Shown piece after piece: positions 9,500 through 61,705 of a stretch of 64,000 bases of DNA. A program made the position numbers and the translations under genes. The notes beneath the pieces were generated by a model. It saw only the letters and a list, made by a program, of their open reading frames with translations, was not told where the DNA came from and did not search any database. Every line of letters starts with the position of its first letter. Position 1 is the stretch's first letter. Source of the DNA: Tricharina praecox (lineage: Eukaryota); NCBI RefSeq assembly GCF_024521635.1, contig NW_026250421.1:434001-498000 (forward strand), in the 5' to 3' direction.

Positions 9500-9815
9500 T
9501 ATAGCACCTATATTCAGAAGAAGTGTGGCGTGCTGTTGAACATCTGGGATGCATGCCAAATGGGGTCACATCGGGGGAGATGACAGTTTTCTTGCGGTTG
9601 CAGCTTTCGTAACATTCAACTCGTCGAAACCGCGAATTTTGAAAATGCAGCTAGCACCCGAACATGCCCTTACCGTATCTACAAAATTCAAAACCGTTCC
9701 TTTCATTTCTTACCACCGATGCCGAGTGAGTGCATGACGTGAGGCTCCCGTGCCCCTGCCTTCCCGCGTGCGGCGTGGAAATGAATTCGCCGCCGCTACT
9801 TTTCCTGCCAACCTA
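9500..9815 (+). repeat. Solo 5' module (copy E) of the RAI1/DXO-like gene repeat unit
   Basis: Near-identical to 39879-40270 and to the reverse complement of about 58670-59014. Begins at the same TATAGC boundary and carries no coding sequence. Confidence 0.9.
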
Positions 9816-11344
9816 CACTATATATATCTACCGGTAGATTATGTTTGTAATCCCTGTAAGTTAGAGCAATTCGACCACGCCGAGGTGTTAAAGTGACTGG
9901 GTTAGGGTTCTAGGTGTCCACAAGTTTTTGATTCCCAAGGCCCATCTTGTTCTTTTCACGATTATGTCCGTCGACGACATAACGCTTTTAGTAGAGTATC
10001 TACAGTACATATTCTCCGGAAAGCTACACAAAGTGGACGTTGAATTTGAAGTTCCGGAAAACAACAAACTTTGCCATGGATCGTCGTAACAACGGTACAT
10101 AGGCACATACACATACGCTTGATTTCACACATCAGGGACCAGGCCGGAAAGCCATCTAACGCCCACGCCAAAAACCCAACTCCTAAAACACCGGCCGGAA
10201 ACATCATCAACCTTCCAAAGAAACCTCCCTCTCCCCAGCGTCGCCGCTCCACCCAGCGGACTACAGTTACATGCACCGATTCCATCATCCAGTAGCCCTC
10301 TGGCAAGCCCGACGTACTATGCTGTACCGGCGACGTTGCTAGCGGTAGCTGAAGCTCGAGTTCATCGTTGTGTCTCCGTCGATGCTACATACACACACCT
10401 GATTAGTACATATATTCGTGCGTTTTCCTTGCGGCGACAGACTATCGGTGGAAGGAAAGCCGAAGGGGCGGAGAGGCCAACCCGAGTCCGGATGCATTTC
10501 AGCGTGTATCGGGCACAATTGAAGGCAACCATGATGGTGACGAGAATGCTGATGATACCGATAGCCAACGAAGCGGCTTCTCCTTGGTTCATGCTTTCCT
10601 TGCTTTCTTTCTAGGTGGATGGATGGATAAATGTTTGTATATAGCGACTCTGTCGGGTAGGTATGTTTGTTGGATGCTCGGAGGAGGAATGGGAGAATAC
10701 CACTTGAGTTATATACGTTGTAGCTATATGTGAAAGAAGATGTCCGGAACGAAAGATGGGTGTGTGTAGTAACTTGAGCGTCGTAGTAATGTTTTTTGAT
10801 ATGGGGTGGTGGTTTACTGGCGCTTTTTGAGGCTGACTGGTCAGGGTTAACTAGCACGGGATTTGCGAAATAAAATGGGTATTATGTGTAACATCGCATG
10901 TTTACGATAACTCGGTTAAATGCCAGATCTCCCCGGGCCAACATATGCCAATAGTAGGGGATATATTCCCGACCCCAAGCGGTGTACACTGCGCACTGCT
11001 CACCCGATGTTGCCGAACTTAACTAGCTATTGCTTCTCACCGAGACCGGTGTCTGGCAAGTAGAGTAAGTAGGAGGGTAGGGAGCCATCTCAAGCCCCAT
11101 CCACCCTGCCCAACCCCATCCCCACAGAGCTTGGAAGTACCGGTATTATCGTCCAAGCTCCCATTCACTTTTGAGCCCGAGATGGCTGCTTTCGCCAATA
11201 ACTGGAGGCGCGCGCAGGAGCGTATGCCGTAGTTTGGACCACGCCCTTCCGAAGTCTGCAATTACTGCAACATCAACGATCACTAACTCAGTCTCCACTT
11301 TTTAGCCACCGCAAAGGTCGGAGTTAAAGCCAATGGCACTACAC

Positions 11345-11383
11345 TACCACTGCCACTGCCACTGCCACTGCCACTGCCACTGC
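11345..11383. repeat. (CCACTG)n microsatellite
   Basis: About 6 tandem hexamers are visible. Confidence 0.9.
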
Positions 11384-11933
11384 CTACATTACGTGTCCGA
11401 CAGTCTTATCTTACCCTTCCAACATCAGCGGTCGCCACTACCGTAGGTATCGTCACTTGCTGCTGCTGCTATTCCCTTCACATACGGCGTCGGGAATTCA
11501 AAGTTGTCACTACCATGATTTCCACCACCCCCTCGGAATATCTATGGTATTACTTTGTACCAAATTCATTTCACATCCCACTTCATTTCGTATCGATTGT
11601 CTGTCATAATTCATAGCATTCATCGTGTAAAAATCCCGTATCCCTCCCGCATCGCAACGCATCGCATCAAACAACATTCCAAATACCTCCCATTTTGCCA
11701 ATCAAGATACCCACAATGGAAAAAAGGAAAGAGGCAAAAAGGAAAAAGGCAAAAAAAACAACCAACCAACTGACAAAGAAAACAAGAAAATAAGGAAGGA
11801 AAAATAAATGTGCGTTTTGATATCACTCACATCCATCTGGAACCGCCCGCCAGCCAAAAGAAAAACGAAAACAAGAAGAAAAAAAAAGAACTCCGTTTTC
11901 CCCCCAGATCCGATCCGATCAGATCACAACAAA

Positions 11934-20600: not shown

Positions 20601-22974
20601 CAGGCTTGGCGGCAACGGAGATTTCTGCTGGGCCGGAGCATCTGGACTTGAATGGGCTCAAAATAGCCAATCCACTTGCTTGGGCTGTTCACGCTTGGGA
20701 GGATACATTCGCAACGATCAACTTTACTCATCCACTGAACGCCACTGCAGAGACTATCGGCTATTCCTCCAATCCGCAGGAAGCCTTGACATATGCCGGC
20801 CTTTACAAATGGTCCACATGGGACCGAGTCGGGGTTGTTATGCTGGGTTATGCGTTCTTTACCATCGCCGGAATGACATATGTTAAGCGGAGACGGCAGC
20901 AACCCCCCGGCCATGTCGAGAAGCTTGCCGCGGAGTTCCTGCAGCAATGCGGCGGCGTGATGAAGGTTGTCCTGATCATCGGAATTGAGATGTTTGTATT
21001 TCCACTTTACTGTGGAGTACTGTTAGGTAAGCGAATCATTTCTTGTGTCTTGCTTCCGCTAACCGGTGTGCATAGACATGGCAATGCTACCGCTCTTTGA
21101 GACCGCTACAATTGCGTCGAGAATCCAATTCGCCATAGATTTCCCATTCACTAATGTCTTTGTGCACTGGTTCGTCGGCACATGCTACATGTTCCACTTC
21201 GCCCTTTTTGTCAGCATGTGCCGCAAGATCATGCGCACCGGCGTATTATGTGAGCTTGTTTCCTTCTCTTCTCCATTACTCTGATACTGATGGCGGTCTA
21301 GATTTTATCCGTGACCCTGATGATCCCAACTTCCATCCTGTGCGCGACGTGCTTAATAGGCCTATCGTTACACAGTTGCGCAAGATTGGCTTCTCGGCAT
21401 TCATATACGGCGTACTGGTTCTCATGTGTCTTGGAGGCGTTGTCTGGGGGCTTCATGGTGTCACTAGCGATGTTCTTCCCATCCACTGGTCGTCCAACGA
21501 ACCGGTGTTTGAATTCCCCGTCGATCTCCTCTTCTACAACTTCCTGATGCCGCTCGCTGTCAAGTTCTTCAAGCCTTCCGATGGCCTTCAGAACATGTAT
21601 GCGTGGTGGTTTCAAAAGTGTGCTCGAGCACTCCGACTCTCCAGTTTCATGTTCGGTGAACGTAACGCGGACGAGGAGGGATACACCGTCTACCCGACAT
21701 GGAGATCGTTTTTCATGAGGGAAAAGCCGGATTACGACACGCCGATCATGCCGGATATGGAGCCTCCAGCGAATCAAATCTACTTCCGACGTAGTGGACG
21801 TTTTGTGCGCGCTCCTGCATCGGATAGTATTCGCCGGCCCAAGGGCACATCGGTGTTCATTCCTGTCGATGAGCAGAACCGCCGCCTGGATGTTAATGCC
21901 GACCTTGACCCCCCGAATGGCCCTACCAGTGCTAACAGCACTGACTGGAGACTTGCCTATATCCCACCGTTCTTCAGAGCGCGTATTGGTATTGTGGTTG
22001 TGGGAATCTGGTTCTTCGCCGCCGTCACGGGTGTGTCGTTTACCATCGGTCCTCTCCTTGTTGGCCGCCTGATCCTCCGCCAGCTCGTCCCATCGCAAGT
22101 CCGCCTCAACGACATTTACGCCTTTTCAGTGGGCGTGTACGTTCTCGGCGGGGCCACCCTTTGTTTGTCCAAACTTCCGGCAGCCTACAATTCCATCAAA
22201 GTTGTTTTACAGCCACTCACAAGCGCCGCCTCCAACGCCTCGTACCCTGAGAAAATCAACAACCTACGCATTGCAGTAACCGATGTAGTCATCCGCTCCC
22301 TCAAGATCTGCTACGTCGTTACCGCCTTTGCGATCGTGATCCCGACGTTAGTGGCACTTATCATCGAGTTCTATTTCATTATTCCTCTGCACACCGCTTT
22401 CGGGGTCACGGCCTCAGCCTCAGCGACACCAACCTTTCCCGATGCCCTCGAAAATATCAACTCCACAGTAGTATCCGCTATCACTGCGGCCGCGCCTCCG
22501 AATAGCCGCTTCCACCTCGAACACACGATTCACTTCGTCCAGGACTGGACTCTCGGCGTCCTGTACGTCAAGATGATGTGCAAGATGGTCCTACTGGACG
22601 ACAACAGCGTTTGGGCGCGCTCTCTTCGCGGCATCGTCGCCCACGGCTGGCTCAACCCCGACGCGAAGCTCGCAACCCGCGTCTTCATCGCCCCTTGCAT
22701 CTTAGCAATGATCGCAGCCCTCGGCTTCCCGGTCGCAATGGCAAAAGTCCTTGTGATACTCGGAATCGCCGACGGCGCTGCTATCTACAGATTCGCATTC
22801 CCCGCGTTCTTCCTCGCTATGTGCATCAGCGCTGCAGGGTACGCTCTTTACCGCGTCGTTGAGGGATGGAAGGAGGGTGTTAGAGACGAGGTTTATCTCC
22901 GTGGCATGAGGATTCACAATCATGGCGAAGAGACCAGTATGGTTAGAGGACGGGTGGGGGACATTGTTAGGTAG
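17658..22974 (+). CDS. SSM4: ERAD E3 ubiquitin ligase Doa10/Ssm4 (MARCH6), about 1713 aa
   Basis: Model join(17658..17869,17944..21026,21076..21249,21302..22974). RING-CH domain CRIC...[20 protein letters not shown]...CELCK, TD-domain motifs (IEMFVFPLYCG, GVLYFIRDPDDPNFHP) and many TM helices. Confidence 0.95.
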
Positions 22975-23809
22975 ACAGACCTTTTTACGTTGCGTTGTAC
23001 GGAGTTCTTTTTTTTTCTTTTCCTTTTTTTTCTTTTCCGTCTCTTTTATTTGCTATTGCGGTAGATGATCGTAACTTTTACTTGTTTGCTGAATCGAATC
23101 GATTCAAATGTCTACCATTTTTTCTTTTTCCTTTTACTTCCGATTCGGTTCGTCGTTTCCGAGGCCTATTGATCCGGCTCCGTTCGGTTGATTTTTTCCA
23201 CTTATTGATCCGAGACGGTTCGTTCGGTTGTTTTCCACAGTTCTTTCACTTTCACTTCACTTCACTTTTAAACGGGGGTTTCTGCTTTTTCTTTTAAAAC
23301 GTGTAGGGTTGGGAAGGGGGGTTGAGAGGGATGGGATGGGATGGGCGGGCAAGCACCTACATACATACATTGTAAGACAGGAATGAATGACTTTGCGAAA
23401 TCATGATCACTTTTTATTACCTAGCACCGTACGCGGCGGCCTGGTGAATCGTGATACCCATGGCTGCACTGTGCGCGCGAACAGGCCTGTGTAACCACTG
23501 ATGTGATGTTGATGTTTCATCGCGCGCTTGCGGGTGCCCATTTTAGCTAGGTCCGGCCATTTCTGCCAACCGCGGCACCGCCAGGCTAGCAGCCCGCTAG
23601 TTACACCATATATCCGGTATTCTCGGAACCGCGTATGCCGAGAGATGGGGGTCGGGTAGCTCCGACTCCCGAGGCCGGCGGGATCATCGTCCGTGGATCC
23701 GTCCCAGCCAGCCAACCAGCCGGCACCGGGCCTTCACCCACCACGAAAACGAATAAAAGAGTATCCGTATCCGATGAAAGATTAGGAAGTCGGGGAGCAG
23801 CAAAAGAGA

Positions 23810-23881
23810 AGCTCTGACGCGGATTTGAACCGCGGATCTCATCATTACTAGTGATGCGCCTTACCGCTTGGCCACCAGAGC
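23810..23881 (-). tRNA. tRNA-Thr(AGT)
   Basis: The minus strand reads GCTCTGG TG GCCAAGCGGTAAGGC G CATCA CT-AGT-AA TGATG AGATC CGCGG TTCAAAT CCGCG TCAGAGC T, a full cloverleaf, followed by TTTT. Confidence 0.96.
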
Positions 23882-24402
23882 TGTTGTGTTAGCTGGTTGA
23901 TTGTCGCGAATATGAGTCTTAGGGGAAAGTATTTTGTCATAAAATAAAAAGTTGGGGATGGGATGCGGCTGTTGGAGAGCTGTTAGGGTTGGGGGGTACT
24001 TGTCGGGCGCCATAGGGGGCGTCGAACGCCGGGCTGGGAGATAAGTGATGAGGATGCGCAAGAGCCCGAAAACGTTGTTGGGTTGGCGGTTGTCTTTTCC
24101 CAGAATCTAAATCGCGGGCTGCGTTTTGTGGATATTTTCAGTCCGCGCGAGATTTCATTATTGGTAGTAAGTTGGGCTATGTATAGGATATAATACCTCT
24201 AGGATGGAGTGGAATGACCCCGACCGATATCCAAGGCTCAGGCACCCGTTTCTCTCCAGGTTTGAACGTGAGGTCACTCGCTCGAGTGCTACGGTGTGAA
24301 GACAGGCAGGCTCTCATCGAAACGCACTCGCATCAAACGATCGCCCGTACGGCGTCGCGAAAATTCAATAGACAGGTGTTTATCAATCCGTTCATGTAGT
24401 AT

Positions 24403-26049
24403 TCAACTGCTCGTTTTGTGGGAAGCGGCGGCGGTGGGGTTTCCTGAGGGCCAGCTAGTACCCAGGCTATCAGTGGAAGGAGGCGGCTGGCCAGTTCACC
24501 GTCGAAAGCAGATATTGATGGTTTTATAATTTATCCCTTGCAAGGAGATAGGTATTCAAAACAGCCATGATCTGATAAGGTCGAATGCTATGATGATTAA
24601 ACAAAAACAAAAACAAAACAACTATCCCAAAAACATCTAAATACGTTGCCATCTATTTCCAGCCCGCTTTGATATCCTAGGGCAGCCCAAACCGATACAT
24701 AGCTCTTATGCATCTCGTAGACACTAAGGGCACTCTGGCCCTTTTTTGTCACGACCGCAAACCCCCACCCCTCTCACAGCCATAGCCGTCCGCATCATCT
24801 CCAGTACTCTCACCAGCTTCTGCAGCTTCTCGGTATTGTTGACCTCCCACTTCATCAGCCCCCAGGTCTTCTTCACGGGGCCCCAGCCCCTTCCCTGCCA
24901 CCGGTAGCAGCGATGGCTCTTTGCCATCTATTTCCAGCCCGCTTTAATATCCTTGGGCAACCCAAACTGATGGCTCTGATGCATCTCGTAGACACTAAGG
25001 GCAGTCTGACCCTTTTGTGTCACGACCGGAAACCTCCCTCCCCTCACCACCATAACCGTCCGCAGCATCTCCAGTACTCTCACCAGCTTCTAGAGCTTCT
25101 CGGTATTGGCGACCTCTCACTTCTTGAGCCACCGAGTCTTCTCCACATCCCGCTGCTCGACCTCGACGATGTTCCCGCCGTCCTCGTGGTACCCAATGGT
25201 CAGGATCGGCGTGCGCGAGAACCACAGCTGCTCTGCCTGCTTGATGTACGTCTTCCCCTTGGGCCTGGACTTGAGCTTGACGATGCTCTCCTCCGGCACC
25301 AGGACTCCTCCCGGGACTTTGCGCACGCCCGTAGGCGCCGCACCCGGCACTATACGCCCCCGTGGGCGCCACGAGCACCTCCCGGGGGGTGCTCCACCAT
25401 ATCCTCCACCTTATCCTCCACCGCGATGCACGCATCGACCTCGAAGCGCATCAGCAACCTCAACCCGTGTCGAAGGACCGCAGCGAAAGCGTGGGGCGAA
25501 TGATTGGTAGTGCGGGGATGAGAGGTCCCAGCGGGTAGGTCGGGAAGTTGAGCCGTGCGGGCGGCCGTTGGTGGGACGGGTCCTGGTCCTCGTCTGCTGG
25601 GATTCGGATGGGCAAAGGCGGTGGTGACCAGATGGGTGGGCAGCCTGTGGAGCTGTTAGTTGAGGTGCTGAGTGCTCGAGGAAGGGAGGTACTACCAGGG
25701 ACGACGATGGTGTTCCGCCAGTTCGGCAGGATGTCGTATGAGGTGAGCACCTCTGCCTCCCGCTGCGAAATGTCGCAGCCCGGGTCGTGGTGGATGGACC
25801 CGCGCTCGATGACGGCGATGCGCATGTCCGTGCCTGCTAGTACGGAAGGCCTGACCATATCGAATTGTAGTATATTGAGGTATTTCCGAAGAATATAATT
25901 GCGCAGGAGAAGCCGGAATGAGGCAGTTTTGTCGTTGTAGGTATTTGGGAAATGTGATGTTTCCGAGTGTCGAATTATTATTATTAAGGTACGCCAATCC
26001 TTAGCTCGCCAGTTTCGAGCCTGCACGGAGTATCACTCGGACGAGTGAG
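24403..26049 (-). repeat. RAI1/DXO-like repeat unit copy A (internally deleted, 3' end duplicated, permuted terminus)
   Basis: Aligns with 39879-42256, 56700-59014 and 59859-61705. The gene 3' end occurs twice (stops at 24653 and 24928). Confidence 0.9.
24928..25858 (-). pseudogene. RAI1/DXO-like nuclease pseudogene (copy A)
   Basis: Deletion of about 240 bp at about 25467 (LSLRSFD joined to GLRLLMRFEVD) removes two motifs. It also has frameshifts and a 4-bp deletion at the intron donor. Confidence 0.85.
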
Positions 26050-27283
26050 ATCCGAGATCAGCCGAGATGAGAGGTATCCACTGTCGGCGAGTGTAATATC
26101 CTGGTGCTCCCGGCGGTGTATCCATAGCGGCTTAACTGTGGTAGGTTATCTACCTGGCGGTTGACCAGGTAAGTGTGGTATATCAATCACCTGAAAGTGG
26201 AGAAACGGAAAGAAAATTAGACTATTTCGGTAGCTTGTGGTGATCGTCAGCGGCTTCCTATCCAATTCTTTAGCCAAAAAGGCTAGATGAAGTGAAGCGC
26301 GCTTAAGGCGCTAATGAAGTCGCCCCCTGCACAGATCTACCATCGAAGTCCTTTCGCCGTCGTCTTGATAGGCTTATAGACGCGAAACAAAATTGATGAG
26401 CCCCATCTACCAGCGAAGTCCTTCGTCGTTCACTACGATATAACGACATCCAAGATCACAGAAATCTAAAATCGACCACGGAAGAGGCTGACAGAGAAGA
26501 GAAAGACAGGCAGAAGCTAAGCGCCTCGAACGCGGCGGTACCGCAACCCCCAGTGTTCTCCATAGTCCAATCCGAACTGCAATCCAGTTCCGTCTTCGCC
26601 TTTTGGAAGACGGGGAAAAATCAGTCCTTCCCGTCCGCCAATCTTCAGGGCAGGGTTAGACTGCACTGCGCAGTCGACTGCAGTCTGGTGGTAAAAAAAA
26701 GTGCCATTCTTTTCAGCACTTGTGAATTATGTACCCACCAAATATAAGAGTAATGTCGAGGTAAGTTCTGGTGACACCCGATTGGATGGCAGAACCTAGA
26801 TGTTGAGGTAGGCTCTGGCGACGCCGTAGGCGGCCGAGCGATCGGAAGACAGAACCTAGATGCTGGATCCGGCTTCAAGAACCTAGAGGCGGATTCAGCA
26901 TCTGGAGCCTTAAAGTATAGACTCGGCACCAGGAATTTGGCCGCTTCACTGTGTATATAAACACTGCCCTGTCCATAGTCTCAATCGATATCTTCACTCG
27001 TTTCAACAAGTAAAGCTTTTCCCACTATCGTGTCTTGATTCTCTTCCAGTACCCAGCAACGCCGTGACACCATCTTCATCCAGTACGCCTACCTACTACA
27101 CTCAAACTTCCCTCTACCACTCCTTGTCACCAACACAGACATCAGACTGATAACACCCTATTGAAATCATGTCCACCGCCGACTGGATTTGATATCCTCA
27201 AGTGAAGTTGTGCACAGGGCGTAGCAGCCTTTCCCTACCAGACTCCCAGTGCAAGGCGCAGAAATGACAAACAGTTGCGACCA

Positions 27284-27738
27284 GTTCAAAGAGTGATTCG
27301 GAGTTGAATTGAAGTGCCCTCGCATGCGCTACAATTAATGTGATGTAGAAGACGCAATGAACACTACACGACAGTACCGACATTTACTCAATTGTCCGCG
27401 GTATCTACAGACAATGCGCGACAACATAAACTGACGTCGGATGCGATCAGTGACGAAGCGGCGGCGACTAGTTCTAAGATTACACTTACTACGCAATCTG
27501 TTAGTTGCCTTGATAGCTCCTCTACAGACCGTAGTAAGGGGTAGCGTTTGAGCTAGTAGTCGCCGCCGCTTCATCGGTAATCGCATTGGATGTCATGTTA
27601 TCGCGCATCGTCTGTAGATAGCGTGGACATTTGAGTAGATGATGGTGCTTTCGTGAGGTATTCTCTCCAACTTCTACCTCACAGTAATTGCACCGCATCC
27701 AGGGGCGCTTCAATCAAACCCCGACTTAGTCTTTGAAC
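27284..27738. mobile_element. Inverted pair of BED-zinc-finger-like DNA-transposon relics
   Basis: The minus-strand ORF reads WMRCNYC...NTSRKHHHLLKC, which is BED-like. 27284-27500 is a diverged inverted copy of 27524-27738. Confidence 0.55.
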
Positions 27739-28820
27739 AAGTTTTCGCATAAAAATCAAGCGCCGCTAATCCGAAGCATACCTTGAAGCCAGATTTCGTA
27801 GCCGTCGTAAAGGCAGCAGCCACATCGCGGTCGGAGTTTGGGTTGCACATCTTCCTTACTGGTGAACAGATTTACTATGATAGTTCTTGGCTTTGTTCTT
27901 TGTTCTTTGTCCTTTCGCATCGTCGCATTATGCATAAGCAGTCTTCGTGGCCTTTGTGGCTTTCTCAGCATTACACGAGCTCGTTGTTTCCCTTTGAAGA
28001 TAGTCGTTTTCACTCGTCTTTCGCTTTCTCGTACTTCGTCTCATCAATCAAGTCAAGTCAAGTTCTTCGATCGATTTCATCACACGATCGATTTCATCAC
28101 ACGATCGATCACTCGGTCGAGTGCTCGGTGATGTACCGCGGCAATGGTCGTTGGTGATCCTAGAATCTAGTCATCACGAGTAGTATAGTGTGCTATTATA
28201 CGCTGGGTAGACGCGGCGGCGATAACTCTACTGGGATCCGTCTAAAAGGAGGAGCTCGATCCTCGCACCCAACTTCCTCACGTGCTCACGGTTATTTTCT
28301 ACTTGTGTGTACGGGGAAAGAGCCTGGGACTGTAAACTTTCCTGCCGGCGGACGCGTATCAGCTTGTCATGTGTACAATTCTTGACCACACGATCATCCC
28401 GATGTCCGTCTCCAGTTCCGACGGCGTATTATACCGTGCACTTATATACATGTAGGCAGAACTCATCTTTCCGCCGTTCCGACTGCGCTGTCCTGTTCTG
28501 TCGAAATATCTCACGATTCCGTCCACCTATCCAGAAATGTCCAGCATCGTAACATCTGCTCCATCTTGTCTCGCTGTAGCCGGCTCGTTCGCGGCGAGAC
28601 CGTGATTTCCCCCTGTCGTAGTTCCGTACTGTGATAGTGACTTGGGGCTCTTCTCCTGGCCGGACTCATCGGAGAAGCGCCCGTGCATATCCGCCGTCGG
28701 ATCCGCCACACCTTCGCGGAATGCAAACACCAGCGCAAAGTTACTCGACAGCAAAGCTTCGCGGAGCGCAGATCTGTGGAGGTCATTCACGAAGTCCAGC
28801 AGCAGTTTGACGATCTCGAC

Positions 28821-31800: not shown

Positions 31801-31922
31801 CTTGCGATGTCTGCCAGTGCGTCTATTGCCGAGGCTCCAATCCGCGTAGTGAGGCCGATGAGGCGGTCAATGAGAGCAAAGGTTGAAAAGATTCCAGTCG
31901 CTAAGGCGAACGGTTTGGCCAT
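28821..31922 (-). pseudogene. Fungal NLR-like STAND protein (helical N-terminal domain, NACHT, ankyrin repeats), disrupted
   Basis: GTWF; spliced Walker A WLNGIP|GAGKSIL (about 30920-31015); Walker B VYILVDALDEC preceded by an in-frame TGA (30584-30586); LLVSSR, GAKGMFR, LAHYSIEEYL; ankyrin repeats (GHLDSVALLLKHGANPD). Further stops near 29472 and 29373. Confidence 0.85.
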
Positions 31923-33223
31923 GGTGATGTCCTTAGTGATGTACTGTACAAGAATGGCGGCGACACAACTAAGGTTCCGCAGGAACTTCGAATGAGACTC
32001 GGGGATGGTGAGTACTTCTTCTTGTAGGTATTTTGTTCCATGCACATTGATCGAGGCAGTGACTGTACTGAGCTCAGCCCCTGACAACTCATACCTACAT
32101 GTAAAGTAGAGTAGAAGTTGCCTGCAGGACAGCCTCGAATCATCTGCATGCAAACGCCTGTTTGGAGCTAGCAACCCCACAACCCCGCAAACAGCGCCAA
32201 CACCACCAGTTGCGAACCACATCAAAATCGTTCGCGACAGTTTTCCTCTTACAGAGGCTCAACGACGACCCATTCAAGCGCGAGAAAAGTAAACAAAATC
32301 ATCGTACAGATGATATTGAAATCTCTCAAGGCAAGCGCAAATTCGAGTAGCCGATTGGAGTTGTAGCCGCTCGAGACGACTACCCATGCCAGCGAGTGGC
32401 CTATGTGGCTGTGGTGCTCAGCTACCTACTATCGACTTCCCCGCAAACCAGCGGTCCACAACGAATCGTTCAAGACATAAACGTGATTGGTGGTTGGTGA
32501 TCGAAAGACACTTGATATTTGACGATCCTCTGTGCATAAGCGGAGGTATCGACCGCTACGGTACACACGAGGGGAGGACTGCGCCCGTGTGCGCGCACAC
32601 CGCATTCTGCCTTAATATCAGAGAAACGTGCATTTAAAAGCACAGGCAAGGGAGCTCAGTGAAATTATCAGGTGAAACCAAATCGAACGGATTGTACTTG
32701 TCATACTACGGACCAAGTCCGTGATGCATGGCGGTTGCAGTGCAGTGCAGAGAACAGCGTTTTGTCTCAGGTCCTGCTGGACTTACATACTCTGATTACT
32801 CGGGGGGCCAAAAGTCAATCCCATGCGATGTTATCAGATCAGATCTGTGGTCGAGATATCCACTCGCGTACTCTCTACTCTGAGAGAGTGAGACACTTCT
32901 ATCGGTCAAGACAGCGGCCAAGCCACAGATCTAATCTCAGATAATCATCGGTGGGGGCGGGAGGGAGGTGTGATAGACTTCCTGGCCGTCTGAGTATGTA
33001 GTAAGTACTAGCGCTTCAGAAGTCGAGTTTGGCATCGGTTGACGGAGATGATAATCAGGGTTGGCAGCTGTATTGCTGGCGTCGGCAGGGTCGGTCAAAT
33101 ACCGGCGTCGGGGTGGCTACCTTTGTCGAACTTCGTCAGGGTTCTGCCTCTTGTCTCTCTCAAGTATGGTGTGGCGGAGCAATAGAAGAGCTGCCGGCGA
33201 GAGGAGGAGGTGAAGGGGGACTC

Positions 33224-33314
33224 CTGTCGGCGGGAGGAAGCGAATGCGGTTAGTAGTGGGCATCAACGTTGGCGGGCATGGTGGGGTCTTCTTCTTCTCC
33301 TTCTCTTCTTTCTT
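33224..33314 (+). repeat. Short repeat with (CTT)n-rich tail
   Basis: Matches the reverse complement of 960-1062. Confidence 0.6.
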
Positions 33315-39441: not shown

Positions 39442-39878
39442 GCTTGCTCTCCACGGGCTCAAAAGGAACCGTCTTGCACCGCGGTTTGGCTGTGAGATGG
39501 TGTGAGTGTGTGAGGGTATATGGGAGGATGGGAAAAAGGGGAGTATATTGAATTGCTAATGAATTTATGGCGGTACTGGATGGGATATGGGAAGGAACGA
39601 ACGATCATGTATGTAAATAATTAATGGAACTGGCATCTGCTCTTACTTGGTACCTATGATACATAAGTCATGAGTCGGTGAGGAGAAAAATATTCTGCGC
39701 ATACCTATCCAAAAACAAGTAACGTTTGTTACAGCAAGATATTTGGGACTATCACAGTATATGCCAAATACATGGTACATATTCTCATAGCTAGACCAGG
39801 TACCATATATACTAAGACTGGAAAGTGGCGCGAGTCTCGGCTCGAGTTACGTGCAGCTGGGTTTATAAATGCCAATCA

Positions 39879-42256: not shown

Positions 42257-42834
42257 ATGAACGAATTCTCTATGGCAATATACAGGACTTGATTGGGTCT
42301 CTACAATTTTTTTTCTCGGGTTTTATCTAGGTAGAATAGTCCACTTTTCCACCCAAGTAGCGAATGACCAAGGGTGAAATGAGAAGGAAGTACGGACTTT
42401 GACCGTTGCGTTGGCAGGGGGACACCGATACTTATGGGACTTCACTTGCGCCGACTTCTGTTCATTCCAATTGCATTGGGTTCAACCGTAGATATTCCGC
42501 TGAGTGAGTCTCGCGGCTGAAAAGCGATTAACGTTCGAGTGACGATCTATGCATGGCTTCTGTCTTAATTGGGCGGCCGTTGAAATGAATGGTGATAAAA
42601 ACGCTAGTGTGTCGAACTTCGCCGCACAACTAGCCAGGATGTTCGCTGTTCTTCTTCTCCCTCTCCCGCTCCTCCTCCTCCTCCTCCTCCTCCTTCTTCT
42701 TCTCCTCTTTACCCTCTACCACACAACTGACTCTACTCTCCCTGAAGGCTGATTCAGACATCACATAAGTGACAATTTCGACCCTTCACGGCTTAGGTAG
42801 TACATCACACTTCGATCGCTCTTGAGTCTTAACC

Positions 42835-43743
42835 ATGACTTCTCGCATGAATAAAGCCCTCAAGGTTCAGCCGGATACTCCTCCTCAACGTGCGCCACAG
42901 GCCTCGCAGGTTCGTACCCTGCAGCCGCCTCAGTCGTGAGATTGACTGCTTACTAACTCTCATTAGCAGCTCGAGCAGGTCCAGCAGCAGCAGCAGCATG
43001 TCCAGCAGCAGCATGTCCAGCAGCAGCATGTCCAGCAGCAGCATGTCCAGCAGCAGCATGTCCAGCAGCAGCATGTCCAGCAGCAGCATGTCCAGCAGCA
43101 GCATGTCCAGCAGCAGCATGTCCAGCAGCAGCATGTCCAGCAGCAGCAGGTTCAGCAGCAGGTTCAGCAGCAGGTCCAGCAGCAATGGCTCTTGGATCGC
43201 CAGGCGCAAGAGCATGGCCGTGCCTCGGCGCAGGCTAGGGCGTTAAAGCGACAGAGACGTGCCGAGGCGGTCCGCCAGGCCAATACGTCAGCAATTGCCG
43301 AAGCCAGGCGCCTTTCGCCGGCTCAAGTACACAAGCGGTACTTGAGGCAGGCGGGCGGACCAACTCCCGATAAGGAGTGCCTCGGGCCGGCTCAGTCGGT
43401 CCAACGCCCTCCCTCTCCCCCCCCTTCTTCCACTCGTCGCCAAGATGCCCGCCCAAGGCTCTCCCGTCCTCCGCCCCCGTTCTTTGTTGGCGAGGGTGGT
43501 GATGTGCTCTTGAAGAAATTTCGAGAGCGTCATCCCGACTGGGAGAGTAGTGGTGAGGGCATGGCGGCGACGAGAGGGAAGAGGCGACGCGAGGAGGAGC
43601 CTGTAGAGGGAGTTGAGGTGGACGAGCGATCGTCTACCAAGAGACTCAAGGTGGGTGGAGCGGATCTGTCCGGTAACTTCGGTTCGCGGTTGTGGGCCGG
43701 TGCCGGTCTGACTTTTGCTGCCCGGGGGGCTGGCCTCATTTGA
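42835..43743 (+). CDS. Hypothetical Gln-rich protein with a (QQQHV)10 repeat, 283 aa
   Basis: Model join(42835..42909,42967..43743), with intron GTTCGT...TACTAAC...TAG. Splicing puts the repeat in frame with ORF 43192..43743. Confidence 0.6.
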
Positions 43744-43983
43744 GGTCACCCATAGAGGGGGGGTGGTGGAGAGGGACAATAGTCTTTGATAATGGTATGC
43801 AAAAGTTTTTTCAGGTTTTATCTTAGATAGTCCACTTTTCGACAGTAATATCTAGGATGATCCACTTTTTTGTCTATCTAGGGTAGACCATTGATTGAGT
43901 ACAAAACGCAGAAATCTCAACACCCTGTCTACACTTTACAACCATAGTAAATGCAACCTAACTTCCGAATAATCGCACATTCC

Positions 43984-46617
43984 TCAAGCCCCTCCATCCT
44001 CGGCCTCTAGGTCAAACCTATCTCCCACATCCGTCACTGTCACCACGGTAGCCCTCATATCCACGCCCCCAGGTACCCCCGGTGCCCTCGGTTCCTCCGG
44101 TTCCTCCGGTTTCTCCGGTTCCTCCGGTTCCTCCGGTTCCCCAGGTTCCCCAGGTTCCTCAGGTTCCTCAGGTTCCTCAGGTTCCTCAGGTTCCTCAGGT
44201 TCCTCAGGTTCCTCAGGTTCCTCCGCCGGTCTCTGGGAAGAATACTCCGGCGGCTCCGACAGCGGATCTGAGGTAACCGGAACTGCCACTGCAGATGCAC
44301 GCCTCGACTGAGAATACACCGGTACTGCAGCTGTGGGTCTCGGCGAAAAGTAAGCTGGTGGCTCCGGCCGCGGTGGTGAGTACGGCGGTAGACTTCCCTC
44401 TCCCCCACTACCCATGCCGGCGCCGCCATCTTGTGATGCGTATTCCAGTACTAGATTTCCACCTTCCACGCCAATGTCAGCGTTGCCGTCATGCGATGCG
44501 TACTCTGGCGGCGCACTCTGCGGCCGTGGATTTCCAGCAAAGGTGGAGATGGGGGTGGAGGGTGTCCACGTTGGCGCTGATTGCGCTACGGATGGTGTTC
44601 GTGCTGGTGAATGGCCAGCATGTGGTTGTGTTGCGTATTGGGGCCACGGCGAGAAAGGGAGTGACGCCTCTTGGTCGAGTGGGGGGATGTGGGTTCGTTC
44701 ATATGGCTCGGATGGTGGAGGTGATGGGTGGACTATCGTCACTGTGGGTGGCGCATGGGTCGCTGTAGCCGAAATAACGGTAGTGGCCGTGGGTGCAGGT
44801 GGTTTGGAAGTCGGTGAGGAAGGTGGTGACTGTTGTCGGTTCGGATTTCGCAGGCCGACGGTGGATGAGATAGTCCGCCGTAGGCCCCCTCGACGACGCG
44901 TGCTGCTGGAGCTGCTGTTGCTTTGCAGTATGCTCGATAATTGACTCGTTGATCTCCTGAGCCATGTTCGCGGCGGAGGCGGATGATCAGCCGCGGTGTG
45001 GATGGTCCTACCGATAGTTTCGGTAGGTGAGGTCAGTGACGAAGAAGATGGAGGTGTATAGTCGATGCTGCTGAAATCAACGAGGTTGCCAGGATGAGGT
45101 TCCTCTGGGACGGGTGCAGTGCTGGTATCACAGGTGCTCGGCGGATATAGATGCGTGGGCAGTGGAGGTGTTGATGTAGCTGAGGCATGTGAGTCCATAC
45201 TAGGTCGCCGGTGATGATATGGAGAGGAGCCAGAGGAGGACGGGGAGGAAGAGGAAGAGGAAGAGGAAGATATATGGATCACGGGGGCCAGACGCTGGCT
45301 GATTGATGGTGATGAAAATGGTGACAGAAGAGACAGTGGTTGCGGCGATTGGAGTGGTAAGACATTAGACGAATGACGCGAAGGCGGTGATGATGAGAGA
45401 GAGTAGGATATAGGAGCGGAATGGGGAGCGCGATTACACGTAGGACGCAGAGTTTGAGGCAATGAGAGTGAGGTTAAGGGCCGAAAGAGAGTAGGGCGCT
45501 CGGATGTACGGTCGTCAGGCCGTGCGCTCGGAGTAGAGGAATCGGATATAGTAGTGGATGGCGGAGGCTGTGGGTAAACGAGGAGTGGAGGTAGTGGAAC
45601 AGTTGGAGGAGATAGCAAGGGTGAGGAACTGTACTCTGTGGAAAGCGCCGGTGGCATATCTCTCGGGAAGTCGGTTGATGTAGGCGGAGGCGGCTGACGG
45701 TATTCCGGAGATGAAGACGGCACGGAAGTAGTGGTAGATGGACCACTGGGTCTTTGGAGACGCTGACGGGATCCTGATCTAGACCGTGAGCTATGTGCGT
45801 TGTGAGGCTGGCGGGACTCTGATCGCGAACGAGAGCTGGGCTGGCGGTGAGGGCTACGTGACCGGGGACACTGAAGTTGAAGTTCATGCCTTGACGGTCT
45901 TGATCGCGACCGCGACGGCGGTGGTGGTCGACGGTCGTAGAAGCCTGGAATATTCATAGCAGGATATTGCCCTCTGTACTTGCCATCCTCTCTTCGATCA
46001 CGTCTCCTGGTTCTGGCTCGGTTTCCTCTTGATACCCATTCAGAATTCCCTTTGTTGACTCCTCCGCCGCCAGGATATTGACCTCCATCCCCACTTCGGT
46101 TCCCATGTCCACCTTCACTTAAGGTTGCGCCCGAGTAGATGCTGCTTTCGTCGGGAAAGCTACCAATCCAATCCTCGGCTAGATGTCCCCTGACTGAAGC
46201 TCTCGGAGGAAACCGCGGATACCCACCACTACCACTACCACTGCCTCCTGCTCTTCCTCCTCCTCCTCCTCCTCGGTCTCCTCCTCCTCCTCCTCCTCCG
46301 CCTTCGCTTTCGCCTCTGTCTCTGCCTCCATCAGGGCCTCTTTCGCTAGTGCCTCCTGGCCGCCACCCCACCTCACCATTATTCATCGACGGCCTAAGCC
46401 CGCTTATTGGTAGATCATACCGTATCACCGGATCCATCGCATTCGGCGCGGCGGTGGAGAAGGAAGGCTCTTTCTCCCTTCGGAGGTAGAAGAGTACTAT
46501 TATGCTGATTACGGCTACGATGCTGATAATAGTACCGATCGAGATGCCGATTGAGCGACCCACTTCGGCTCCGGTGGATGCCGATTGCCGGATGTGGAGG
46601 AGTTGGATGTGCGGCAT
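43984..46617 (-). CDS. Single-pass membrane protein with a long disordered Ser/Pro-rich tail, PY motifs and an (EEP)-type repeat, about 877 aa
   Basis: Open reading frame of 2.6 kb. TM segment IGISIGTIISIVAVISIIVLFYL followed by RR; PPEY x2, PPAY and LPPY; about 15 copies of a 9-bp repeat at 44090-44223. Confidence 0.7.
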   Translation of the reverse strand: MPHIQLLHIRQSASTGAEVGRSIGISIGTIISIVAVISIIVLFYLRREKEPSFSTAAPNAMDPVIRYDLPISGLRPSMNNGEVGWRPGGTSERGPDGGRDRGESEGGGGGGGGDRGGGGGGRAGGSGSGSGGYPRFPPRASVRGHLAEDWIGSFPDESSIYSGATLSEGGHGNRSGDGGQYPGGGGVNKGNSEWVSRGNRARTRRRDRREDGKYRGQYPAMNIPGFYDRRPPPPSRSRSRPSRHELQLQCPRSRSPHRQPSSRSRSESRQPHNAHSSRSRSGSRQRLQRPSGPSTTTSVPSSSPEYRQPPPPTSTDFPRDMPPALSTEYSSSPLLSPPTVPLPPLLVYPQPPPSTTISDSSTPSARPDDRTSERPTLFRPLTSLSLPQTLRPTCNRAPHSAPISYSLSSSPPSRHSSNVLPLQSPQPLSLLSPFSSPSISQRLAPVIHISSSSSSSSSPSSSGSSPYHHRRPSMDSHASATSTPPLPTHLYPPSTCDTSTAPVPEEPHPGNLVDFSSIDYTPPSSSSLTSPTETIGRTIHTAADHPPPPRTWLRRSTSQLSSILQSNSSSSSTRRRGGLRRTISSTVGLRNPNRQQSPPSSPTSKPPAPTATTVISATATHAPPTVTIVHPSPPPSEPYERTHIPPLDQEASLPFSPWPQYATQPHAGHSPARTPSVAQSAPTWTPSTPISTFAGNPRPQSAPPEYASHDGNADIGVEGGNLVLEYASQDGGAGMGSGGEGSLPPYSPPRPEPPAYFSPRPTAAVPVYSQSRRASAVAVPVTSDPLSEPPEYSSQRPAEEPEEPEEPEEPEEPEEPEEPEEPGEPGEPEEPEEPEKPEEPEEPRAPGVPGGVDMRATVVTVTDVGDRFDLEAEDGGA

Positions 46618-56699: not shown

Positions 56700-59014
56700 A
56701 GTACCTGTTACTAACAGCGGCAACGAGCCCCTTGGCTCGAGAGAGTCACGACTCCTTTCACCCTTTCACACTATCAACGTACGTAGGCGGCCGATGGAGA
56801 TGGAGTGCTACTGGTTTTTAACTTTTTATGTACTGGAACTGCTGGAACTCCGAACCGAATCTGCTGGTAGATACCGTATTCCAATCCTTTGCCCACCGGT
56901 TTCAAGCCCGCATGGGGTATCACTCGGATAAGTGAGCTGAGCTGGAGCAAGTGCTCGTTTTTCGCGAAGCTGCGGTGGGGGTTCCTGTGGACCAGCTAGC
57001 CATGGTACTCAGGCCATCGGGGGGAAGGAGGTGGTTGGCCAGTGCACTGTCGAGAGCAGATATTGATGGTGTTATCATTTATCCCTTGCAAGGAGACATC
57101 GGTGGCTTCATTGACGAGGCGGGGTCTTGATGGAGTACATACAGCTTCACGGTAAGTATCAGTTTGATCACTACCGTATACAGGTAATGAGACAGGTTCA
57201 TAATGAAGCTCTCGTCACCCGTGTCGTGGGAGCAGTAACATGTATCCCAAAACAGCCATGATCTGGTAAGGTCGAAAGCCATGATGATTAAACAAAAACA
57301 AAAACAAAACAACTATCCCAAAAACATCTAAATACGTTGCCATCTATTTCCAGCCCGCTTTGATATCCTAGGGCAGCCCAAACCGATACATAGCTCTTAT
57401 GCATCTCGTAGACATTAAGCGCACTCGCCCAATTCTGTGTCACGACCGCAAACCTCCCCCCTCCCCCCTCTCACGGCCATAGCCGTCCGCAGCATCTCCA
57501 GTACTCTCACCAGCTTCTGCAGCTTCTCGGTATTGGTGACCTCCTACTTCTTGAGCCACCCCGTCTTCTCCACGGGGCCCCAGCCCCTTCCCTGCGCCGC
57601 CACCACCGGTGGCAGTGATGGCTCTTTGCCATCTACTTCCAGCCCGCTTTAATATCCTCGGGCAACCCAAACTGAGAACTCTTTTGCATCTCGTAGACAC
57701 TAAGGGTACTCTGGCCCTTTTGTGTCACGAACGCAAACCTGCCTCCCCTCACCACCATAACCGTCCGCATCATCTCGAGCACTTTCACCAGCTTCTGGAG
57801 CTTCTCGGTATTGGTGAGCTCCCACTTCTTGAGCCACCCGGTCTTCTCCACATCCCGCTGCTCGACCTCGACGATATATCCACCGTCCTCGTAGCACCCA
57901 ATTATCAGGATCGACGTGCGCGAGAACCACAGCTGCTCTGCCTGCCTGATATGCGTCTTCCCCTTGGGCTTGGACTTGAGCTCAACGATATTCTCCTCGG
58001 GGGCCGGGACCCCACCCGGGACTATACGTACGCCCGTGGGTGCCGCGAGCACCTCCTCGGGAGGTCCAGCTCCTCCTCCTCCACGGCGGCCTCCTCCTCC
58101 TCTGCGGCCGCGGGCGGCCGTGGGTGCCTGGGGTCATGGTCCTTGTCTGCTGGGATCCGCGTGGGTAAAGGCGGAGGTGACCAGATGGGTGGGCAGCCTG
58201 TGGAGCTGTTAGTTGAGGTGCTGAGTGCTCGAGGAAGGGAGGTACTACATACCCGGGACGGCGATGGTATTCCGCCAGTTCGGCAGGATGTCGTATAAGG
58301 TGAGCACCTCCGCCTGCTGCTGCTGCGAAACATCGTAGCCCGCGTCGTGATGTATAGACTCGCGCTCGATGACGGCGATGCGCATGCCTCATGCCCGCTC
58401 GTACGGAAGGCCTGACCATATCGAATTGTAGTATATTGAGGTATATAATATCCAAGTCTGAAGAATATAATATAATTGCGCAGGAGAAGCCGGATCGAGG
58501 AGGTTTTGTCGTTGTACGTATTTGGGAAATGTGATGTTTCCGAGTGTCGGATTTATTGTTGAGGTTGGGTTGATAGGAGAAGGTGAGTTGGGAGGGAGAT
58601 GTAGTTGTATGATGTAAGAAAGAAAAAAGCTTGGGGGGGTGGGTGCGGTGTGGGTTTTATGGGGGTAGCCTGGCGGCGGCGAATTTAATTCCACGCCCCA
58701 CGCGGGAGGGCAGGGGCGCCAATTCAATTCTACTCCCCACGCAGGAGGGCAGGGGCACGGGACCCTCACGTCATGCACTCACTCGGTATCAATAGTAAGA
58801 AATTCAAGCAACGGTTCTGAACTTCGTAGATTGGGTAAGGGCATGTTCGGATGCTAGCTGAATTTTCAAAATTCGCAGTTTTAGTTTTGACGAGTTGAAT
58901 GTTACCAAAGCTGCAACCACAAGAAAACTGTCGCTCCCCCCGATGTGACCCCGTTCGGCACGCATCCTAGATGTTCAACAGCACGCCACACTTTTTCTAA
59001 CTACAGGGGCTATA
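56700..59014 (-). repeat. RAI1/DXO-like repeat unit copy C
   Basis: 5' boundary TATAGCCCCTGTAG at 59014. Gene 3' end duplicated (stops at 57344 and 57633) as in copy A. Private duplication of about 39 bp at about 58680-58760. Confidence 0.9.
57633..58419 (-). pseudogene. RAI1/DXO-like nuclease pseudogene (copy C)
   Basis: A larger deletion (HPRPPA joined to AAEEEE, about 58110) removes three motifs, and there are two frameshifts. The intron donor GTATGT is intact. Confidence 0.85.
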
Positions 59015-59016
59015 TA

Positions 59017-59620
59017 CCCTACATGTCTGGCGCTCGTAAATTTGTTGCACCGCACCAAGTCGGCCCGATCTGGACCGATCCAGAAAGGTTGGCAACGAGT
59101 GATATCAAAAGCATTCAGCGATGGCGTGTGGATTTCGCAGAGCAACTGGTGTAAGTTAGTAGAAACAGGCTCTCTACCATTATGTATCCAGCGGCGCACA
59201 TTCCCACTTCCCTCCTCCTGAAGCTTTTCCAACTATGAAAGTGTACCTAGTAGTAGAGTCCGCTGCCGCTCTCGGTGTAGTAGTATCCACCGATGGCGCC
59301 CCCGCCTGCAACATGACTGCCTGTTTTGACTGGACTCTCGGCCCCATAACCTCTGTATTCGCCCTGTTGCTCATTATCTCTGGTATTGACACCGAGGATG
59401 TTTGAAGTACCGTGGGTCAGGCGGCGACGGCGACTGTTATGGCACCTAGCAACCGTAACTGGTATCAACCGTGGCAGGTGGCAACCGTGACTACTACCAG
59501 CACAGCTGCAACCAGGCGAATCGAGACGGTGAGCTGTGTGGTTGTGTAGGCACACTGCCGCCTCCCAACCAGGCATACTTTGCAGTGCAACAAATTTACA
59601 CACGCCCCGGACATGTAGGG
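59017..59620. mobile_element. Segment of about 600 bp bounded by imperfect inverted repeats of about 35 bp (MITE-like)
   Basis: Left end CCCTACATGTCTGGCGCTCGTAAATTTGTTGCAC (59017-59050). Right end reverse complement CCCTACATGTCCGGGGCGTGTGTAAATTTGTTGCAC (59585-59620). No clear TSD. Confidence 0.5.
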
Positions 59621-59858
59621 GATACGCAGGTATCAACTGGTGGTTGTCCGTAGAGTTGATTTGTATTGTGGCTCAGTCGACAATGTGCAGTTTCTCCAAT
59701 TGTTGGCTTAGGGTGGTGTGCCAAAGAATGACCCATTGCGCGGAAATTGATGGTTCGACACTGCGTCTCACTTTTTGTATGGTAGATTCGAAATGCAGTT
59801 GGCACCCAAACTGGGCCTAAAACATAATCTACCGGCAGGTCTTGGGTATACCAAATTA

Positions 59859-61705
59859 CCAACCCTTTGCCCGCCGGTTACGAGCCCGCACAGAGTATCA
59901 CTCGGACATGTGGCTTGATCAAGTGCTCGTTTTTCGCGAAGCTGCGGTGGAGGTTCCCACCAGGGGAGAAGGAGGTAGTTACTATACCCAATGCTCCGTT
60001 GAAAGCAGGAATTGGTGGTATTGATGGTCTTTTCCCTTGCAAGGAGACATCGCCGGCAGAAAGGGTGGCAGCGGCTGAGGAGGCAACAGTTGTGACTAGC
60101 AAATAGGAGTAGCGGTGGGTCACCGCATTGAGCTGGTTATCTGGGCTGCAGATAGGATTTAGAACTTGTACTCGGCATAGGCCAGATAGGTTGCAGGAAA
60201 TATGAAGACCTAAGGGAGCTGCGGTATGAAGCTGTTTGCAATTCTGGCTTTTAGCAAGGCCGGGTGTGCGCTACGTAGCCTAGGTAGAGTACACGGTTAT
60301 GTTGGTGAGGCGGGGTCTTGATGGAGTACAGCAATTCACGGTATCAGTTTGATCATGATACAGGTAAAGAGCCACGAGTCCAGGGGTTTCTCAATGAAGC
60401 TCCCATGTCTTGAAAGCAGTAACTATTCCAAAAAAACCAAAGTACATTGCCATCTATTTCCAGCCCGCTTTAATATCCTCGGGCAGCCCAAACTGAGAAC
60501 TCTTTTGCATCTCGTAGACACTAAGCGCACTCTGGCGCTTTTGTGTCACGACCGCAAACCTCCCTCCCCTCACCACCATAACCGTCCGCAGCATCTCCAG
60601 TGCTCTCACCAGCTTCTGGAGCTTCTCGGTATTGGTGAGCTCCCACTTCTCGAGCCACCCGGTCTTCTCGACATCCCGCTGCTCGACCTCGACGATATTC
60701 CCGCCACCCTCGTGGTACCCAATGATGAGGATCGGCGTGCGCGAGAACCACAGCTGCTCGGCCTGCCTGATATACCTCTTCCCCTTGGCCTTGGACTTGA
60801 GCTCGACGATGCTCTCCTCCGGCACCAAGACTCCTCCAGGCACGATGCGGACTCCGGTGGGCGTCACGGGCACCTCTCGGGGCGGCTCCAGCTCCACCTC
60901 CTCTGCGGCGGCCTCCTCCTCCCCAATGCACGCATCGACCTCGAAGCGCACCAGCAACCTCAGCCCGCCAAGCGTATACCCTACCGCACGACAATGCATC
61001 ACACTCTCCCGGGAGCACTCTTGTCTCCTGGTGAACCTCCGCTCAAGACTCTTGCCATACCCATCACTCGCGGAGCCCCAGAACCTTGCCTGCCCCGACA
61101 GCAACAGGGTATTCGCGACCACCTCGGCGTTGATCTGGAAATCGGCCGCGTCGCTGCCCAGGAACGCCAGCAGCTCGCGCAGCGAGTGGCGGTCCGTGAT
61201 GATGTCGAAGGACCGCAGAGAAAGCGTGGGGCGAGTGATTGGTAGTGCCCGGAAGAGAGGTTCCAGCGGGCACGTCGGGAAATTGAGACGTGCGGGCTGC
61301 CGTGGGTGGGTGGGATCTTCGTCCTTATCCGCTGGGATTCGGATGGGCAAAGGCGGTGGTGACCAGATGGGTGGGCAACCTGTGGAGCTGTTAGTTGGGG
61401 TGCTGAGTGCTCGAGGAAGGGAGGTACTACATACCCGGGACGACGAGGGTGTTCCGCCAGTTAGACAGGATGTCGTATGAGGTGAGAACCTCTGCCTCCC
61501 GCTGTGAAATGTCGCAGCCCGGATCGTGGTGGATGGACTTGCGCTCGATTACGGCGATGCGCTTGCCCATGCCCGCTCGTCCGGATGGCCTGACCATATC
61601 GAATAGTAGCCGTAAGGTATATAATATCCAGGTTCGAAGAATATAATTGGGCTGGATAAGACGGAAGAAGGGGGTTTCGTCGGCGTAGGTATCTGGGAAA
61701 TGTGA
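59859..61705 (-). repeat. RAI1/DXO-like repeat unit copy D (full-length coding core)
   Basis: Shares the 3' module (CCTTTGCCCGCCGG...TATCACTCGG...GTGCTCGTTTT) and about 110 bp upstream of the ATG with other copies. Has about 250 bp (about 60052-60305) that B and C lack. Confidence 0.85.
60454..61597 (-). CDS. RAI1/DXO-superfamily (PD-(D/E)XK-fold) nuclease-like protein, 362 aa, intact
   Basis: Model complement join(61597..61435,61379..60454) with a 55-bp GTATGT...CTAAC...CAG intron and no stops. Motifs occur in DXO order: DIITDRHSLRELL, GYGKSLE, LLVRFEVD, IVELKSK, QLWFSRTPILIIGYH. Confidence 0.75.

Follow-up and report, generated by a model that had tools for sequence, protein, structure and literature searches.

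A 64,000-nt stretch of the genome of the cup fungus Tricharina praecox (RefSeq assembly GCF_024521635.1, contig NW_026250421.1, positions 434,001 to 498,000; hereafter the window, with coordinates counted from its first base) contains five related segments, four of which carry an intact or decayed gene for a protein with the DXO/Rai1 fold. These segments probably originated by lineage-specific, local duplication of a cellular gene at the DNA level, possibly assisted by a transposon, with subsequent gene conversion and decay. Under this scenario, repeated DNA-level copying would have placed a segment of ~1.5-2.1 kb, comprising the gene, its intron and short flanks, at neighbouring intergenic sites in either orientation, all within one chromosome region of T. 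praecox. The copies would then have swapped patches by ectopic gene conversion, and deletions and frameshifts would have disabled all but one of them, as in birth-and-death evolution. Some of the sharp breakpoints coincide with or adjoin a small, TA-flanked miniature inverted-repeat transposable element (MITE), and part of the copying was probably aided by breaks at transposon ends or by recombination at small repeats.

The segments, here denoted A to E, were delineated with a repeat finder and self-BLASTN of the window, and the copies were multiply aligned. They occur in both orientations and show pairwise nucleotide identity of 82-90%, with up to 97% over 494 nt between A and B. The boundaries given in the preliminary description of this DNA hold to within tens of bases, except for the upper end of A, which is at 25990 rather than 26049. 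The repeat is a chain of modules: a head, H (393 bp, 39879-40271 in B), that is found in E, B and C and not in A or D; a core, G (40272-41756 in B), that consists of the gene with ~150 bp upstream and ~440 bp downstream and is present in A, B, C and D; and a 3' flank, F (41757-41955 in B), that is common to B and C and of which D and E have only short pieces. The homology of the flank is evident from a local alignment of B 41650-41955 with C 56987-56701 (202 of 268 positions identical; score 53 vs a shuffle maximum of 22). An adjoining MITE, module M, makes the sharp 'tail' of the repeat.

Only copy D (59810-61724, or from 59848, minus strand), which consists of the gene with short flanks and lacks the head, retains an uninterrupted frame. 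The gene begins with an ATG at 61597, as annotated, or at 61570, and proceeds through exon 1 to 61435, an intron (61434-61380) and exon 2 (61379-60457) to the stop codon at 60456-60454; the translation is letter-identical to the annotated 362-aa protein P0001. Directly upstream of the start of the D homology, 2-3 tandem copies of a ~25-nt unit occupy 61745-61830 (minus strand). Copy B (39879-42258, plus strand) combines head, core, flank and a piece of the MITE; its core is a pseudogene with a 235-bp deletion at 40810/40811, a 1-nt deletion and other indels, and the annotated model P0050, with residues 1-54 100% identical, maps to it. Copy A (24403-25990, minus strand) is a core-only pseudogene with the same 235-bp deletion, further indels, two in-frame stops and an internal duplication that pairs 24646-24876 with 24921-25146. 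Its upstream end corresponds to B 40272, that is, exactly to the junction between H and G, and model P0013 maps to this copy. Copy C (56701-59014, minus strand), also a pseudogene, has its head at 59014-58566, its core from 58565 and its flank down to 56701; it carries a ~360-bp deletion of its own, a later frameshift and a 3' internal duplication (57337-57573 vs 57626-57851), and model P0010 maps to it.

Copy E lacks the whole gene core. Its head (9500-9815, plus strand), with a ~90-bp internal gap relative to B, is 87% identical to B 39879-40165 and 85% identical to C 59014-58718. Nine nucleotides past the head, at 9825-9882 (plus strand), there are scraps of module F that match D 59838-59810 at 26 of 30 positions, including a 16-nt exact word, B 41811-41827 at 16 of 17 and C 56873-56837 at 27 of 37. 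The scraps are collinear, each local score lies inside the shuffle range, and the assignment is based on position and exact words. Local scores for an extension of this homology to ~10027, and for a right terminus common to E, B and C, fall within the shuffle range, and neither is claimed. The starts of copies E, A, B and C (9500, 24403, 39879 and 56701) are fairly evenly spaced, at ~15-17 kb, a regularity among four points that is possibly due to chance.

The 55-nt intron is kept in all four gene-bearing copies, as are non-coding 5' and 3' flanks, and no poly(A) tract is noticed at the copy ends in the alignments. Retroposition is therefore rejected, and the copying was DNA-mediated, in agreement with the preliminary description. 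The alignments also corroborate the proposition that D alone is intact and that A, B and C have lost catalytic motifs by internal deletion: the 235-bp deletion common to A and B, which is not a multiple of three, takes out motifs I and II, and the ~360-bp deletion in C takes out motifs I-III. A and B additionally share a loss of 4 nt at the 5' end of the intron that still leaves a GT, and an internal duplication of ~275 bp in the 3' coding part is common to A and C.

The distribution of identity along the copies is mosaic. Between the head/core junction and the deletion, 7 of 523 sites differ in the A-B pair and 84 of 532 in the B-D pair; just past the deletion, A and B differ at 24 of 210 sites and B and D at 14 of 210, with 100% identity between B and D in two consecutive 60-column windows. 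The lesions are shared in a similarly mixed manner, A having its deletion in common with B and its internal duplication in common with C. Together, these patterns point to exchange between copies by ectopic gene conversion or recombination, which fits the earlier suggestion of spread by ectopic recombination. It had also been proposed that deleted copies still multiplied. The deletion shared by A and B does imply that the deleted form was either copied or converted, but the deletion may have spread by conversion instead of the copying of a deleted unit. The intron (61380-61434 in D) shows only 0-2 differences per 51-55 sites between copies, vs 6-15% in the coding sequence; in so short a sample, the near-identity may stem from a patch converted recently or from constraint on this element.

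The ratio of nonsynonymous to synonymous divergence (dN/dS), estimated from the retained codons of copy pairs, is 0.28-0.50, with dS of 0.10-0.39. Values below 1 suggest that purifying selection was acting during much of the divergence, as would be the case if several copies had formerly been functional. Coding transitions and transversions are close to balance in six pairs (27:23, 59:45, 48:50, 57:52, 37:36 and 55:55, the last being C-D), and the GC content is 52-56% across the copies, so that there is no signature of repeat-induced point mutation (RIP).

The protein encoded by D has the DXO/Rai1 fold over its whole catalytic domain, as judged from an AlphaFold2 model built with 22 homologues (predicted local distance difference test score, pLDDT, 85.8; predicted template modelling score, pTM, 0.88). 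The top Foldseek match of this model is mouse DXO (3fqj; E 3.8e-15), followed by Schizosaccharomyces pombe Rai1 and other Rai1/DXO1 structures. The active-site motifs of the DXO enzymes are Arg (I), GxxFE (II), EhD (III) and EhK (IV). A profile of the D family aligns with Arabidopsis thaliana DXO1 (E 0.072) such that its Arg, GYGxxFE and EVD correspond to motifs I-III. In D, the motifs are R118 (I), G161-E167, GYGKSLE (II), E201-V-D203 (III) and E247-L-K249 (IV), the last placed by pattern only. In the 22-sequence alignment, R118 is conserved in 22 of 22, E167 in 20, D203 and E247 in 21 each, and K249 in 16. According to a paper that describes the motif I arginine (PMC11571810), DXO/Rai1 is encoded by one gene in most eukaryotes, Caenorhabditis elegans, with ~10 genes, being among the exceptions. 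The D protein scores 18.3 bits against the Pfam family PF08652 (RAI1), below the gathering cut-off of 26.8; 7 of the 23 family members scanned give sub-threshold RAI1 matches at E<0.01, and none reaches the cut-off. The D family is thus a distant sister of PF08652 and not a member, and the preliminary assignment to RAI1/DXO-like nucleases stands with respect to the fold and the active-site residues and fails at the Pfam cut-off. By analogy with the decapping and 5'-3' exonuclease activity of DXO/Rai1, the D protein most likely acts on RNA 5' ends.

In the ESM Atlas, the D protein belongs to PF29557, in clusters automatically named 'Geranylgeranyl pyrophosphate synthetase'; given the DXO/Rai1 fold, this name is a mislabel. 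The family has conserved motifs of its own, FRIDAE and QLWFSRTP, and is large, with 1400 representative clusters at E<=1e-3 and 779 at E<=1e-10, the named matches coming from ascomycetes and basidiomycetes. The expansion is lineage-specific: outside Tricharina, the nearest protein is a metagenome fragment with 72% identity, and the next ones reach at most 48%. Of 78 metagenome loci that encode relatives, each taken with as much as 10 kb of flanking sequence per side, 76 carry a single copy. In 18 long family members (552-926 aa), there is no fusion to a mobility or immune domain, only to a short-chain dehydrogenase and a WW domain. The literature search found no mention of PF29557 and nothing in print on the family; it returned only canonical DXO work for DXO/Rai1 paralogues in filamentous fungi, and among the papers listed for Tricharina praecox, no title or abstract opening deals with this locus. 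D itself departs from the family at R136Q (R in 21 of 22), D138N (D in 20 of 22) and F166L (F in 19 of 22), which turns FRIDAE into FQINAE and GYGxxFE into GYGKSLE. A further T. praecox model, P0017, carries the same Q, N and L, and the T. praecox clade may be relaxed or changed in function.

A nuclease gene that multiplies within a genome could itself be selfish, either as a homing-type or break-inducing enzyme that furthers its own duplication through repair or as a killer or driver gene whose family expands and decays like wtf or Spok. D keeps the PD-(D/E)XK catalytic residues, and R136Q and D138N could mark a change of function. The protein family evolves fast, the closest homologues from other genera within the same taxonomic family being ~45% identical, and the occurrence of one intact copy and several pseudogenes in one region resembles known driver families. 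Nevertheless, we consider this explanation very improbable because the fold is that of RNA 5'-end enzymes and not of known homing endonucleases, nearly all relatives are single-copy, dN/dS is below 1, and there is neither a recognisable target site nor a second, antidote gene. The preliminary notion of a selfish element built around the nuclease is likewise not supported, in view of the size of the cellular family, the small number of copies and the ragged ends of A and D.

The copies extend beyond the window. Contig information is available for five close T. praecox models (P0001, P0010, P0013, P0017 and P0019), and all of them are on one contig of 760,953 bp. P0017 and P0019 are 79-83% identical to the window copies and have no position in the window at >=95%, so that there are at least two further, broken copies elsewhere on that contig. 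P0017 keeps motifs I-III, with an N-terminal stretch that resembles an out-of-frame reading of D and a C-terminus that cannot be aligned to D. P0019 is annotated as a chimaera in which a ferric-reductase transmembrane fragment (PF01794) is joined to the C-terminal half of the DXO-like gene. A search for shorter annotated fragments returned only P0013, P0017 and one metagenome relative, and a distant paralogue, P0023 (31% identity), is on another contig.

Soil metagenomes provide an independent view of the locus; contigs from four runs were matched to window positions 24001-44000 at 80% likeness. In the best run, single-copy sequence has a summed depth of ~8 and is matched without differences by contigs of 2-3 kb; the bins within the unit have summed depths of 25-72, and its listed variant sites are each covered by 4-8 contigs. 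As a rough measure only, such depth fits roughly ten or fewer copies and not hundreds. One contig (36979-39904) crosses the upstream junction of B with 0 differences, and the form of the D/C junction is seen as a 'goes back' joint in two runs. No contig in the four runs bridges an empty A or B site, so that the empty sites looked for following the preliminary description did not turn up. An apparent skip from 39748 to 42868 near B, seen in one run, has a 20-nt side and a much greater depth than the fungus itself; because it runs into a low-complexity tandem repeat, it is judged spurious. At 42920-43203, there is a tandem array of at least 13 copies of a 15-nt unit, inside an open reading frame (ORF), that draws unrelated metagenome contigs and causes spurious joints. 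That the repeats are an artefact of assembly, produced by collapsed or duplicated reads, is barely credible: the copies differ from one another by 3-18% and carry distinct indels, and these independent contigs match the unique flanks without differences and support the junctions.

The MITE is directly relevant to the question of how the copies were made. Module M (608 bp, 59015-59622, no strand assigned), which separates D from the C head, has terminal inverted repeats (TIRs) of ~40 nt and TA on both sides (59013-14 and 59623-24). Its inverted arms, 59013-59054 and 59581-59624, are 85-86% complementary, and the TIR motif is present at both ends. The tail of B (42045-42258, plus strand) comes from a second member of this MITE family, of which it comprises the right ~215 bp, with the right TIR and without the left one: it matches 59218-59014 at 162 of 193 positions and has the TIR motif at 42242-42255 with 2 mismatches. 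Thus, the right end of the MITE adjoins the head of C, and the same MITE terminus ends B. Judging by its TA flanks, M would be a MITE of the Tc1/mariner (Stowaway-like) superfamily. The B tail is covered by 6-9 contigs per run in two soil metagenomes, more than the gene has, and the MITE family is multi-copy, with more copies than the gene unit. The presence of TA on both sides indicates that M inserted by itself into an existing D/C junction, and because the sharp boundary of the tail is a MITE end, the apparent end of the repeat belongs to another element.

Several observations weigh against local duplication with conversion and decay. Copies E, B and C start at exactly the same base (TATAG...), each preceded by TA, and the flanks upstream are unrelated. 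E has lost exactly the gene core, the left edge of the loss corresponding to B 40271/40272, the same junction at which A begins. Two MITE copies are situated 0-90 bp from unit ends, and it is unlikely that they are there by chance and have nothing to do with the copying. Such shared breakpoints fit transposon-end breaks or a unit with defined ends and are not predicted by ragged segmental duplication. The placement of small, single-gene segments at separate intergenic sites, ~15 kb apart, in both orientations and with conserved genes in between, is transposition-like and less typical of unequal crossing-over. Finally, the confinement of the copies to one contig is established for annotated proteins only.

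Accommodating these observations, the unit of head, core and flank could be a non-autonomous mobile element, either of a TIR-less or unrecognised class or one mobilised by a MITE transposase acting on one real and one cryptic end, that captured a cellular DXO-like gene and is moved in trans by an enzyme with its gene elsewhere in the genome. The common left terminus of E, B and C, the intergenic insertions in both orientations and the MITE wedged between the 3' region of D and the head of C are all compatible with such an element; E, which keeps the head and a little of the 3' flank without the gene, looks like an internal-deletion derivative, and the multi-copy MITE family implies that a matching transposase may exist. 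This explanation is nonetheless unlikely, even if it deserves consideration. No TIR pair was found at the unit ends of B, C and E, and no target-site duplication was found in the flanks of the unit copies. The start of the head resembles the MITE TIR in only ~8 nt (by inspection), the ends of A and D are ragged, the right terminus of the three copies lacks statistical support, the MITE probably came into the D/C junction by its own insertion, and the copies are few, are annotated on one contig and show no empty site. A very improbable variant is that head, core and flank form an undescribed type of true, TIR-less mobile unit that moved in trans or was helped by breaks made by its own DXO-fold PD-(D/E)XK protein, in which case E would be an internally deleted form and A-C decayed copies.

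The known classes of elements were considered in turn. The unit does not fit a Helitron, given that it starts with TATAG, ends with ...GGTAC (the end of the B/C homology) or at the MITE TIR, and has neither 5'-TC nor 3'-CTRR; only a 6-bp AT-rich palindrome is seen, by inspection, near the B/C end. The head does not fit a solo long terminal repeat (TG..CA and a 5-bp target-site duplication) or a short interspersed nuclear element, and the whole unit does not fit a TIR DNA transposon or a Pack-type element because there is no inverted pair at the B, C and E ends and no duplicated target. Among 36 pairs of 230-400-bp flanks outside the copies, no match is notable except for a short one between the downstream side of E and the 3' side of D, and the head, flank and MITE modules have no matches in the 78 metagenome loci of relatives. 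A Pfam scan (E<=0.001) of all 150 stop-to-stop ORFs of at least 110 aa in the window yields no match to transposase, integrase, recombinase (including tyrosine recombinase), reverse transcriptase or Rep-helicase families. The preliminary description is accordingly upheld in having seen neither a mobility enzyme nor a pair of TIRs at the ends. Its call for common termini and target-site duplications yields a divided answer: an exact left start in three copies, and no target-site duplication, no supported right end and a sharp tail that is a MITE end. It had further named ragged ends, a single locus and no empty sites as the marks of ordinary local duplication; the ends of A and D, the one contig and the lack of a bridged site agree with that case, but the exact start of the head in E, B and C does not.

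The copies reside in intergenic spaces between ordinary genes. Pfam matches identify a Trm732/THADA gene (2000-5325), a MARCHF6/Doa10-type ligase (21139-22971) and a major facilitator superfamily (MFS) transporter (38032-39438). Between A and B, there is a NACHT-ankyrin, NLR-like gene (28824-30583, minus strand), the ORFs of which encode ankyrin repeats after the end of an NPHP3_N/NACHT-type NTPase domain. A tRNA-Thr (AGT) gene at 23808-23882 (minus strand), ~520 bp from the downstream end of A, is the only Rfam/ARAGORN match in the window. When the 549 window ORFs of at least 60 aa were compared with the 78 metagenome loci of relatives, none outside the repeat units matched at E<=1e-6. The window contains another repeat family, at 32672-34005, with weak copies at 973-1058, 8784-9036 and 63381-63480; its summed metagenome depth is 124, whereas that of single-copy sequence is ~8, and one site is covered by as many as 51 contigs. 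The ORFs that overlap 32672-34005 have no Pfam match, and this repeat is probably a degraded transposon.

Comparison with known systems helps to place the locus. With DXO/Rai1/Dxo1 (PF08652), D shares the fold and four active-site motifs, whereas its family differs in the sub-cut-off score, the separate Pfam entry, its own motifs and its 1400 clusters. Birth-and-death clusters of paralogues are alike in their lineage-specific copies in one region, mosaic identity, independent lesions and single survivor, but here there is no simple tandem array, the copies being ~15 kb apart and in both orientations, and three of them share an exact end. Pack-MULEs and Helitrons likewise carry DNA-level gene copies with introns and flanks, no enzyme in the unit and, here as there, one head-to-tail pair; the present unit differs in having no TIRs or target-site duplications, no 5'-TC/3'-CTRR, no Rep-helicase or transposase in 64 kb and few copies. 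The flank duplications that result from alternative transposition of maize Ac/Ds are alike in that breakpoints fall exactly at a transposon terminus, but here the head of B is not beside a MITE end, and the pattern is known from one window. The wtf drivers of fission yeast and the Spok drivers of Podospora are comparable fast-evolving families with intact and decayed copies and ectopic recombination; no poison-antidote architecture is visible here, and no relation in sequence or fold is expected.

The repeat most likely represents ordinary, if tidy, local gene birth, conversion and death. If it were a true TIR-less mobile unit, it would be the first example of a selfish element with a DXO-type nuclease at its centre. 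With its breakpoints shared exactly and situated next to a MITE, the locus offers a concrete instance in which the ends of small transposons may have seeded gene duplication in a fungus without RIP-type mutation. Beyond this locus, there is a large fungal family with the DXO/Rai1 fold and intact motifs that is widely mislabelled, and the biochemistry of even one member would fill a gap in the biology of RNA 5' ends.

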